This document shows positions 8,831-9,826 of a stretch of 36,524 bases of DNA, piece after piece. The stretch lies in IMG/VR virus record IMGVR_UViG_2778261068_000005; one strand, given 5' to 3'. This DNA is from a virus (lineage: Duplodnaviria > Heunggongvirae > Uroviricota > Caudoviricetes). The notes beneath the pieces are model-generated. The model was given only the letters and a program-made list of their open reading frames with translations. It had not been told where the DNA came from and searched no databases. Both the position numbers and the translations under genes were made by a program. Position 1 is the stretch's first letter, and every line of letters starts with the position of its first letter.

Positions 8831-9826
8831 ATGAACGGAATCTGGTACGAAAACACTCATACACGCATTCCTAATTTTGAAACAACAGTACATCAAAAGC
8901 ACAAATTCGGTTACGCTTATGAAACAACAAGTCATTTTGTACATCTGTATGGGCGTGACGTGGGATTTAATGTAATATCAGTTGGGTTAACTGTTATTGA
9001 GCAACGAAGTGGAACTCTCAATGATTGGGTTCGGAGAGTATTTGGGGCTCAGAACATATCTCCTTTAGATAATGAAATTGGACATGTAACTAGGGGAGTG
9101 TGGCGGCCATCCTTATATTATGTCAATGATACAGAAACAGCATTAGGTATCGATGAGTTTGAAAAAAGAGCAACAGAGCAAGCTCTAAGAGTTTTGATAG
9201 AAAAACTCGATGATATTTTTCTATATGTAGAACCAAGTGCCCATGGTTTGATTTCTTACAGTCATAAATGTAGAGAGCTATTAATTCTTGCTTGTACTGA
9301 GGTTGAAAATCAATGGGTGTCAATCATTGGTAATTCGAATTTATCTCGTTCAAATGGTCGATACTCCACAAATGATTATGTGAAATTATTAGATAAGTGT
9401 TATTTGTCTGAATATAAAATTCAATATTTGAATTATGACGGATTAAGGCATTTCAAACCTTTTGATGGGTGGAATGCAAGTACCCCTACAACATCTTTGT
9501 CATGGTATAATGCATATAATAAAACTAAACATGATAGATCAGGAGCATTCCACTTTTCCACTTTAGAAAATGTAATGGATGCAGTTGCTGCTTGTGTTGT
9601 AATGTACTGTGTAAAATATGGCCCGTTTAGCTTATTGGAAGCCAATACGTCTCTATCAACGATCGTTAATCAAAACTTTTCAATTTCATTAGATAATAGC
9701 AATCCAGCAAGTTATTACATTCCTGAAATTGAACTTCCACCGGATACAAGAACGGATTTATTAATTTATGATTGTTATCGAGAAAACCATAATAAATCAT
9801 GGGTTACTGATCCCCTAGTGCTCTAA
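8831..9826 (+). CDS. Unrecognised 332-aa cargo protein (candidate defence/abortive-infection effector)
   Basis: RBS AGAGGTGGTG before ATG 8831; AT-rich relative to phage core; contains an R-x4-H motif (RSGAFH); convergent with the HNH gene. Confidence 0.65.
   Translation: MNGIWYENTHTRIPNFETTVHQKHKFGYAYETTSHFVHLYGRDVGFNVISVGLTVIEQRSGTLNDWVRRVFGAQNISPLDNEIGHVTRGVWRPSLYYVNDTETALGIDEFEKRATEQALRVLIEKLDDIFLYVEPSAHGLISYSHKCRELLILACTEVENQWVSIIGNSNLSRSNGRYSTNDYVKLLDKCYLSEYKIQYLNYDGLRHFKPFDGWNASTPTTSLSWYNAYNKTKHDRSGAFHFSTLENVMDAVAACVVMYCVKYGPFSLLEANTSLSTIVNQNFSISLDNSNPASYYIPEIELPPDTRTDLLIYDCYRENHNKSWVTDPLVL

Follow-up and report, generated by a model that had tools for sequence, protein, structure and literature searches.

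The stretch of DNA analysed here, referred to as the window, comprises 36,524 nucleotides (IMG/VR record IMGVR_UViG_2778261068_000005) and carries a complete P2-like prophage. It begins with an integrase gene (1-1128, - strand) and includes the genes for the replication endonuclease gpA (4794-6992), the portal protein (10911-11942, -) and the terminase (11939-13705, -), the last of which is followed by the head, lysis and tail genes. The present study concerns the gene at 8831-9826 (+), whose product of 331 residues belongs to phrog_19461, a family of unknown function, and is considered a candidate stand-alone defence protein. The gene lies beside the cos site, between gpA and gpQ. P2-like phages have an established hotspot for anti-phage systems in their gpA-cos-gpQ region (Rousset et al. 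2022, PMC9122126), in line with a preliminary description of this locus that was made from the sequence only.

The left edge of the cargo interval is formed by the cos cohesive-end sequence GGCGTGGCGGGGATACGAG (8701-8719). Salmonella phage SEN8 has the identical sequence annotated as 'putative cos site' (1-19), and cosL of P2 has the same placement relative to Q. Between cosL (1-19) and Q (187-1221) of the P2 reference there is just the tQ terminator and no gene, which bears out the earlier statement that the P2 core has no gene at this position. The interval that is empty in P2 carries about 2.2 kb of cargo in the window. Occupancy of the slot varies among otherwise related prophages: out of 5,426 complete E. 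coli genomes, 12 have the cassette, as against 1,270 in which some part of the queried interval was matched. Among the matches listed without the cassette, only the cos-proximal flank aligned. The gene occupies a variable slot of the P2 type, as cargo of foreign origin.

The open reading frame (ORF) spans 996 nt including the stop codon and encodes 331 residues from its ATG; the length of 332 residues given previously includes the stop codon. An alternative TTG start at 8798 would yield a version of 342 residues. A ribosome-binding site, GAGGTGGTG (8822-8830, +), was read directly from the sequence, in agreement with the earlier description, with GAGG (8822-8825) 5 nt ahead of the ATG. Two perfect TATAAT hexamers (8789-8794 and 8804-8809, +), located by regular expression and direct reading at 22-42 nt upstream of the ATG, are candidate -10 boxes with weak -35 partners. 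The GC fraction is 0.35 in the ORF as well as in the region of the HNH endonuclease gene that faces it, compared with 0.52 for the portal, 0.57 for the terminase and 0.53 for the gpA gene, and is lower than that of the neighbours, as previously noted. The presence of the ORF is upheld by the uniform length of its 555 homologues and by the ratio of non-synonymous to synonymous substitution rates (dN/dS), which is 0.04-0.15 between the window gene and its relatives; this is a real gene under purifying selection. Its product is identical to the E. albertii protein BAT38676.1.

An unnamed family with a HEPN-like core

Judged by sequence similarity, the gene belongs to a large, unnamed family that is found across many bacterial phyla, including bacteria of the Candidate Phyla Radiation. 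A word-indexed search retrieved the 555 homologues, nearly all of them 331-332 residues long and 48-92% identical, from Enterobacterales, Vibrio, Acinetobacter, Bacteroidota, Verrucomicrobiota and other hosts. When 1.84 billion cluster representatives were searched exhaustively with a profile, 2,687 clusters (50% identity) were found at E <=0.001, and 678 at E <=1e-30.

The difficulty of assigning a family, already met when the gene was described, persisted in database searches. The sole library match of the protein is phrog_19461; scans against Pfam and NCBIfam gave no match, and no defence family among the hidden Markov models of PADLOC-DB v2.0.0 was matched at E <=0.1. A Pfam scan of 61 diverse relatives returned chance-level matches only, with no HEPN family among them. 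Searching the PDB with the sequence gave one chance-level match (E 1.2), and with the family profile nothing; Foldseek against viral models found one uncharacterised fragment. An hhalign comparison of the family profile with a DUF4145 protein that adjoins an E. coli relative gave a probability of 0.15%. Two names carried by family members in Vibrio records (P0286 and P0290) are not supported, namely 'DUF936', whose score of 13.6 bits is below the cut-off of 24, and 'YcaO', for which there was no match.

The structure of the protein was modelled with confidence by AlphaFold2 with the family alignment (pLDDT 94, pTM 0.91), and conservation was compared between 49 close and 61 distant relatives. 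According to the secondary structure of the model and this comparison, the protein consists of an N-terminal beta-rich domain (approximately residues 1-105; 8831-9145, +), a central helical core (approximately residues 109-263; 9155-9619, +) and a C-terminal region with a few strands. The long helices of the core (109-130, 145-167, 224-242 and 245-263) form, in the model, a four-helix up-and-down bundle of the HEPN type. The N-terminal domain is highly conserved within the close subfamily, in which H21, H35, H38 and W91-R92-P93 are invariant. The distant relatives share just the core (approximately residues 107-270), which is the sole part common to the whole superfamily, and their N-terminal regions are of similar length and unrelated. 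There is also a relative of 212 residues that consists of the core only (hhalign probability 97.9%). This pattern fits a conserved effector core joined to variable sensor or regulatory modules.

In the alignment of 49 members 37 positions are invariant, and close and distant relatives alike keep R92, R148, E157, E159, Y226, Y229, N230, K233 and H234 with few or no exceptions. The first core motif, H145-K-x-R148-E-L-L-I-L-A-C-T-E157-V-E159-N160 (9263-9310, +), contains R148 (49/49 close and 60/61 distant relatives), E157 (49/49 and 59/61) and E159 (49/49 and 61/61). The second, W225-Y226-x-x-Y229-N230-x-x-K233-H234-x-R236 (9503-9538, +), is the proposed catalytic cluster; Y226, Y229, N230, K233 and H234 are invariant in both sets, and R236 is found in 48/49 and 56/61 sequences. 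To judge from the topology of the bundle, helices 2 and 4 would begin, and helix 3 would finish, on one side of it, with R148 and K233/H234/R236 clustering at the canonical HEPN site. The sequence RSGAFH (R236-S-G-A-F-H241; 9536-9553, +), previously pointed out as a possible HEPN-type motif of the R-x4-H kind, is indeed present and its R236 is conserved, but position 241 is a histidine in only 8/49 close and 11/61 distant relatives, serine being the commonest residue, so that it is not a motif of the family.

These patterns of conservation bear on the question whether the gene might at present be a functionless passenger, either neutral or decaying, as could be imagined from the pseudogene state of its HNH neighbour and from the lack of an assigned function in the databases searched. 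The low dN/dS, the full length kept across phyla at 48-60% identity and the 37 invariant residues all argue against it, and because of this selection signal such a reading is close to refuted, with hardly any probability left to it.

The gene has been listed before in two published studies. Table S5A of Rousset et al. gives the arrangement of the window ('hypothetical ... HNH_2', WP_077625619) as an untested entry (PMC9122126); the 'putative HEPN' protein of the tested system pFR103 in that study is a different protein. Table S10 of DefensePredictor contains the E. coli orthologue, WP_231331915.1, as a 'Predicted novel defense gene' with no homology to known defence, at a mean log-odds of 12.89 (12.9), the strict cut-off being 4, and the core-only relative of 212 residues likewise has log-odds of 12.9 (PMC13092281). 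The cluster of WP_231331915.1 is represented by WP_227534336.1, which is the protein annotated at this locus in E. coli C21. Searches by motif in supplementary tables of DefensePredictor, the complete table of validated systems included, found no validated relative, and accession searches found no paper that names or characterises the family. The description of the gene as an undescribed defence effector holds with a reservation: the family has no name, but both the arrangement and the gene had been listed in these two tables.

Genomic contexts of the relatives

Loci of relatives were fetched from one-genome-per-species bacterial genomes (76 loci) and from viral contigs (21 loci), and their 1,758 neighbour ORFs were clustered all-against-all. 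Over about 99 loci no neighbour family recurs at a fixed position, except for the HNH gene in the P2-type cos-Q cassette, and no conserved adjacent antitoxin gene, as in type II toxin-antitoxin systems, was found. The gene is foreign, mobile and partner-less.

Family members reside on a variety of mobile elements, including 14 plasmids, 10 of which are conjugative. In an integrative and conjugative element (ICE) of Pectobacterium the gene adjoins type IV secretion genes, and in an ICE-like region it occurs with DUF932, RadC and an nSTAND1 ATPase. A 71%-identical relative is found in a P2-like prophage of Morganella morganii (L109, 7001-7996), where it comes after the tail-fibre assembly gene and is followed by an inverted U-T-E-tube-sheath block (sheath-tube-tape-measure). 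We take this site to be the equivalent of the Z/fun site of P2, another variable site of that phage; the cargo gene is therefore mobile between the hotspots of P2. Since relatives are found in non-phage settings, the possibility of a structural or morphogenesis protein was rejected.

The range of carriers (prophage, ICE and conjugative plasmids) would also suit a factor in competition between mobile elements or in addiction to them, such as a latent toxin that stabilises its carrier, or a protein that excludes related P2-like phages, P4-type satellites or plasmids, and systems of the P2 hotspot can indeed target P2 relatives (PMC9122126). Such a factor is nevertheless unlikely, as there is no conserved antitoxin-like neighbour in the roughly 99 loci, while the association with type I restriction-modification (R-M) operons and Gabija-like genes described below, as well as the defence score of DefensePredictor, fit host defence better.

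The association with R-M genes was seen in three type I operons (L060, 9788-10726; L061; L077) from proteobacterial metagenome-assembled genomes, two of which are labelled Alphaproteobacteria or 'Candidatus Enterousia'. A distant homologue of 312 residues is encoded between hsdS and hsdR, in the order hsdM, small ORF, hsdS, homologue, hsdR and YgjP-like peptidase, with a 7-nt overlap with hsdS and a 12-nt gap to hsdR; in L060 an extra ORF of 402 residues stands between the homologue and hsdR.

Adjacency to OLD-family AAA_15/TOPRIM ATPases was observed in three independent lineages, in differing orientations: E. coli and a K. pneumoniae IncF plasmid (L101-L104 and L115), Chryseobacterium (L036 and L116) and Pedobacter (L028). 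In an E. coli island the family gene follows genes for a NACHT ATPase and UmuDC and is convergent with a Gabija-like set of OLD-type AAA_15/TOPRIM ATPase and UvrD helicase, after which comes an integrase; on an IncF conjugative plasmid of K. pneumoniae, the part of this arrangement made up of UmuDC, the family gene and the helicase is found. On a Chryseobacterium plasmid or element the gene adjoins a GajA/GajB-like pair. A UvrD helicase stands beside the ATPase, in a Gabija-like manner, in the enterobacterial and the Chryseobacterium lineages. The adjacency to OLD/Gabija-like genes may reflect co-location in islands or a functional link.

A survey of the 132 immediate neighbours from 72 non-redundant loci identified serine recombinases (5) and integrases (2) by Pfam, and by PADLOC AbiLi, AriA-like, HEC-01A and PDC-M07A (2 each), together with GajA, a type IIG R-M enzyme, TmtA, Lit, PDC-S27, PDC-S31 and a type I S subunit. 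The overall distribution is as expected of a self-contained, horizontally exchanged conflict gene.

A gene of this kind could also serve the phage. Hotspots of phages and islands also house anti-defence genes (PMC12629846). If the family were to inhibit or evade host immunity, or to modify or repair nucleic acid for the benefit of the phage, its recurrence by Gabija-like loci would be equally fitting, since an antagonist could be expected there as well, and the absence of the canonical HEPN catalytic motif would be accommodated. We see little chance of this, given the operonic siting between hsdS and hsdR and the presence in non-phage islands and ICEs, which are unusual for anti-defence genes, the great rarity of the gene in sequenced phages, and the high defence score of DefensePredictor. 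An anti-phage or anti-mobile-element role of the 331-residue protein is, on balance, probable; the mobile and defence contexts of its relatives and the DefensePredictor log-odds of 12.9 agree with the earlier view of the gene as a strong defence candidate.

The HNH neighbour and other genes of the prophage

Downstream of the gene, on the opposite strand, lies an HNH endonuclease gene (9883-10853, -; phrog_21425; 319 residues when intact), so that the two genes are convergent, as had been described. In the window the HNH gene is broken into two ORFs (10557-10853 and 9883-10509), both of which match one phrog profile of 319 residues, and no intact reading frame was found; in SEN8 the gene is intact. 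An alignment of 11 loci placed the frameshift in a run of seven A residues (10578-10584, -; T7 on the + strand), which is an A8 run shortened by one A. The A7 run is present in the window, L001 and L080-L083, an A8 run in L002, L084, L089 and L014, and an in-frame GA7 in L085. The frameshift is thus common to the window and five related loci of E. coli/E. albertii type, whereas the loci of Salmonella type and the others are in frame.

The slip site reads A_AAA_AAA in the upstream frame, and -1 ribosomal or transcriptional slippage would restore the frame of 319 residues. Both halves are otherwise open in the six loci, which differ by about 1.3%. The HNH gene may recently have become a pseudogene, or its expression may be subject to phase variation or depend on slippage. 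Length differences of 3 nt and 6 nt, which are in frame, were also observed in a TAT/ATT trinucleotide repeat in the N-terminal part of the HNH gene (about 10690-10700, -), and the length of this repeat varies among near-identical prophages (the window, L080-L083 and L001).

The HNH domain is recognised by Pfam (HNH_2, E 8e-9) and by similarity to the PDB entry 6yex, an 'HNH endonuclease' (E 2.6e-5), which we take to be the modification-dependent EVE-HNH enzyme VcaM4I. A weak NCBIfam match is to a restriction endonuclease of phosphorothioated DNA (26 bits, cut-off 180 bits), and the N-terminal two-thirds of the intact SEN8 protein, ahead of HNH_2 at residues 219-268, matched no Pfam family. 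From these similarities, the HNH gene is probably a separate nuclease gene resembling those of type IV restriction.

The gap of 56 nt between the two convergent genes contains an inverted repeat (9833-9870) with a predicted folding energy of -16.8 kcal/mol on the + strand and -17.9 kcal/mol on the - strand (z -2.9 and -3.8). A shared bidirectional terminator had been claimed here; the gap does hold a stable hairpin, but the hairpin lacks a clean U-tract and was passed over by a consensus terminator scan, and a function as shared terminator is no more than plausible.

The suggestion that the two genes act together, as sensor and nuclease of one two-component system, may be weighed on these data. 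The HNH gene accompanies the 331-residue gene in all 11 fetched P2-type cassette loci and in SEN8, and the hairpin in the 56-nt gap is shared. Being convergent, however, the genes are not co-transcribed, and the HNH gene is absent from nearly all loci outside the P2 type (the gene occurs without it in all of the other approximately 85 loci). Moreover, the HNH frameshift is fixed in the E. coli/E. albertii clade beside a gene under purifying selection, and the HNH protein resembles self-sufficient modification-dependent nucleases (PDB 6yex). A two-gene system is accordingly most improbable, and an obligate pair was rejected on the grounds of convergent orientation, separate occurrence and the frameshift; because of its orientation, its occurrence without the HNH gene elsewhere and the decay of the latter in the window, the 331-residue gene is regarded as independent.

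Several other genes of the prophage were noted. Immediately upstream of gpA lies an orphan N6-adenine DNA methyltransferase of the D12 class (Dam-like; 3880-4797, +), with a Pfam E-value of 2e-76 and the PADLOC label 'orphan methyltransferase'. On the gpA side of cos, an acidic ORF of 111 residues (7986-8321, -; phrog_17127, function unknown) has no match in Pfam, NCBIfam or PADLOC; more than 1,200 E. coli genomes have sequence that includes its 5' end, and a gene overlapping it is called 'DUF8087 domain-containing protein' in some RefSeq records. An FRG-domain protein of 311 residues is encoded at 19673-20608 (-), on the opposite strand within the tail/lysis block, presumably at the orf30 position of P2; in the PADLOC scan its match was to PDC-S15, a candidate defence family (E 6e-31), so that the prophage has a second cargo gene with a defence-candidate label. 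The region 24551-26380 contains an invertase of the Hin/Gin type (25697-26380; Resolvase and HTH_7); next to it, a tail-fibre C-terminal segment (25379-25786, -) and a tail-fibre assembly gene (24975-25400, -) are present in copies of opposite orientation. The region resembles an invertible switch of host range at the Z/fun position. Just past the end of the prophage, the host DNA carries the gene for the small RNA RybB (33747-33825, -; Rfam RF00110, 106.5 bits).

Proposed function and relation to known systems

We propose that the 331-residue protein may be an autonomous, single-protein anti-phage module carried as exchangeable cos-proximal cargo. Its effector would be the central HEPN-like bundle, most likely a metal-independent ribonuclease (RNase), in which the basic and histidine residues R148, K233, H234 and R236, together with R92, E157, E159, Y226, Y229 and N230, would replace the canonical R-x4-6-H site, and the N-terminal beta domain would keep the effector silent until a cue of infection is sensed. 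We infer the HEPN-like RNase mechanism, the roles of the individual residues, the sensor role of the N-terminal domain and the defence phenotype from the model, the conservation and the contexts given above. As a full statement, i.e. a stand-alone protein of the abortive-infection type with an HEPN-like, probably RNA-cleaving core and an N-terminal gate, this proposal is tentative, with doubt slightly outweighing belief.

Among known systems, a stand-alone anti-phage module with an HEPN fold is exemplified by AbiV (PDB 9bj5) and other single-protein HEPN abortive-infection proteins, and the same is proposed for the present protein, although it has no match to AbiV or Abi models in PADLOC or to HEPN families in Pfam, and its catalytic motif differs. 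The HepT-type toxins (PDB 8xdj, 7ae2 and 5yep, entry names of which cite R102/H107/Y109 mutants) are also comparable. HepT proteins have 130-140 residues and a conserved R-x4-H-x-Y, and are neutralised by the adjacent MNT antitoxin. The 331-residue protein differs from them in its additional N- and C-terminal beta regions, and has neither a partner gene nor a conserved R-x4-6-H nor similarity at the level of sequence profiles. That a regulatory domain fused to HEPN can give a one-gene defence is illustrated by DS-11, an HEPN-containing system from DefensePredictor (PMC13092281).

The distant homologues within type I R-M operons, with their overlapping or near-abutting frames, recall the anticodon nucleases PrrC and RloC; the place between hsdS and hsdR is the classic prrC position, and genes of this kind provide a second defence for cases in which restriction is blocked. 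PrrC and RloC combine an N-terminal ABC-type ATPase with a canonical nuclease motif of the HEPN type. The present family has neither of these, and the copy in the window is located in a prophage instead of an R-M operon. With old, tin and fun(Z) of P2 the gene shares the property of being non-essential cargo in a variable site of P2, yet there is no sequence relationship and no PADLOC model was matched; the present gene is on the cosL-Q side, in contrast to old and tin, which P2 carries on its A-cos side.

Several observations weigh against the proposed function. Neither RSGAFH nor any other R-x4-6-H is kept in the family, the invariant histidine being H234, two residues ahead of R236. No HEPN sequence profile was matched in the Pfam and NCBIfam scans of the protein, in the Pfam scan of the 61 relatives or in the search of the PDB with the family profile, and hhalign against a canonical small HEPN nuclease gave a probability of 1.8%. 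Foldseek against the PDB returned no significant match for the model of the protein, and it is from the topology of the bundle that the conserved residues are assigned to its canonical end. About 90% of the immediate neighbours of family members are not recognisable as defence genes, and the gene is present in 1 of 50,697 sequenced phage records (SEN8). A consensus scan called no promoter of the sigma-70 type upstream of the gene, the TATAAT hexamers having been passed over because of their poor -35 hexamers.

In a broader proposal, the protein may be the founding member of a very large family of one-protein immune nucleases with interchangeable N-terminal sensors, which would serve both as phage and plasmid cargo and as back-up of type I R-M systems, and whose active site would have been relocated: in place of R-x4-6-H on helix 4, it would be made up of H-x-R, where helix 3 ends, and of an Arg where helix 2 begins. 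This is possible, though we rather doubt it.

The general logic of a one-gene defence of the HEPN type that is carried in a phage hotspot is a familiar one. The gene also illustrates that P2-like phages are able to accept cargo on the cosL-Q side, where P2 has none. The family has neither a Pfam nor a PADLOC model, and if the proposed function is correct, a nameless family with thousands of members would enter the catalogue of bacterial immune genes. It would also imply that the HEPN fold is able to catalyse with differently placed residues, and that surveys based on the R-x4-6-H motif would overlook such proteins.

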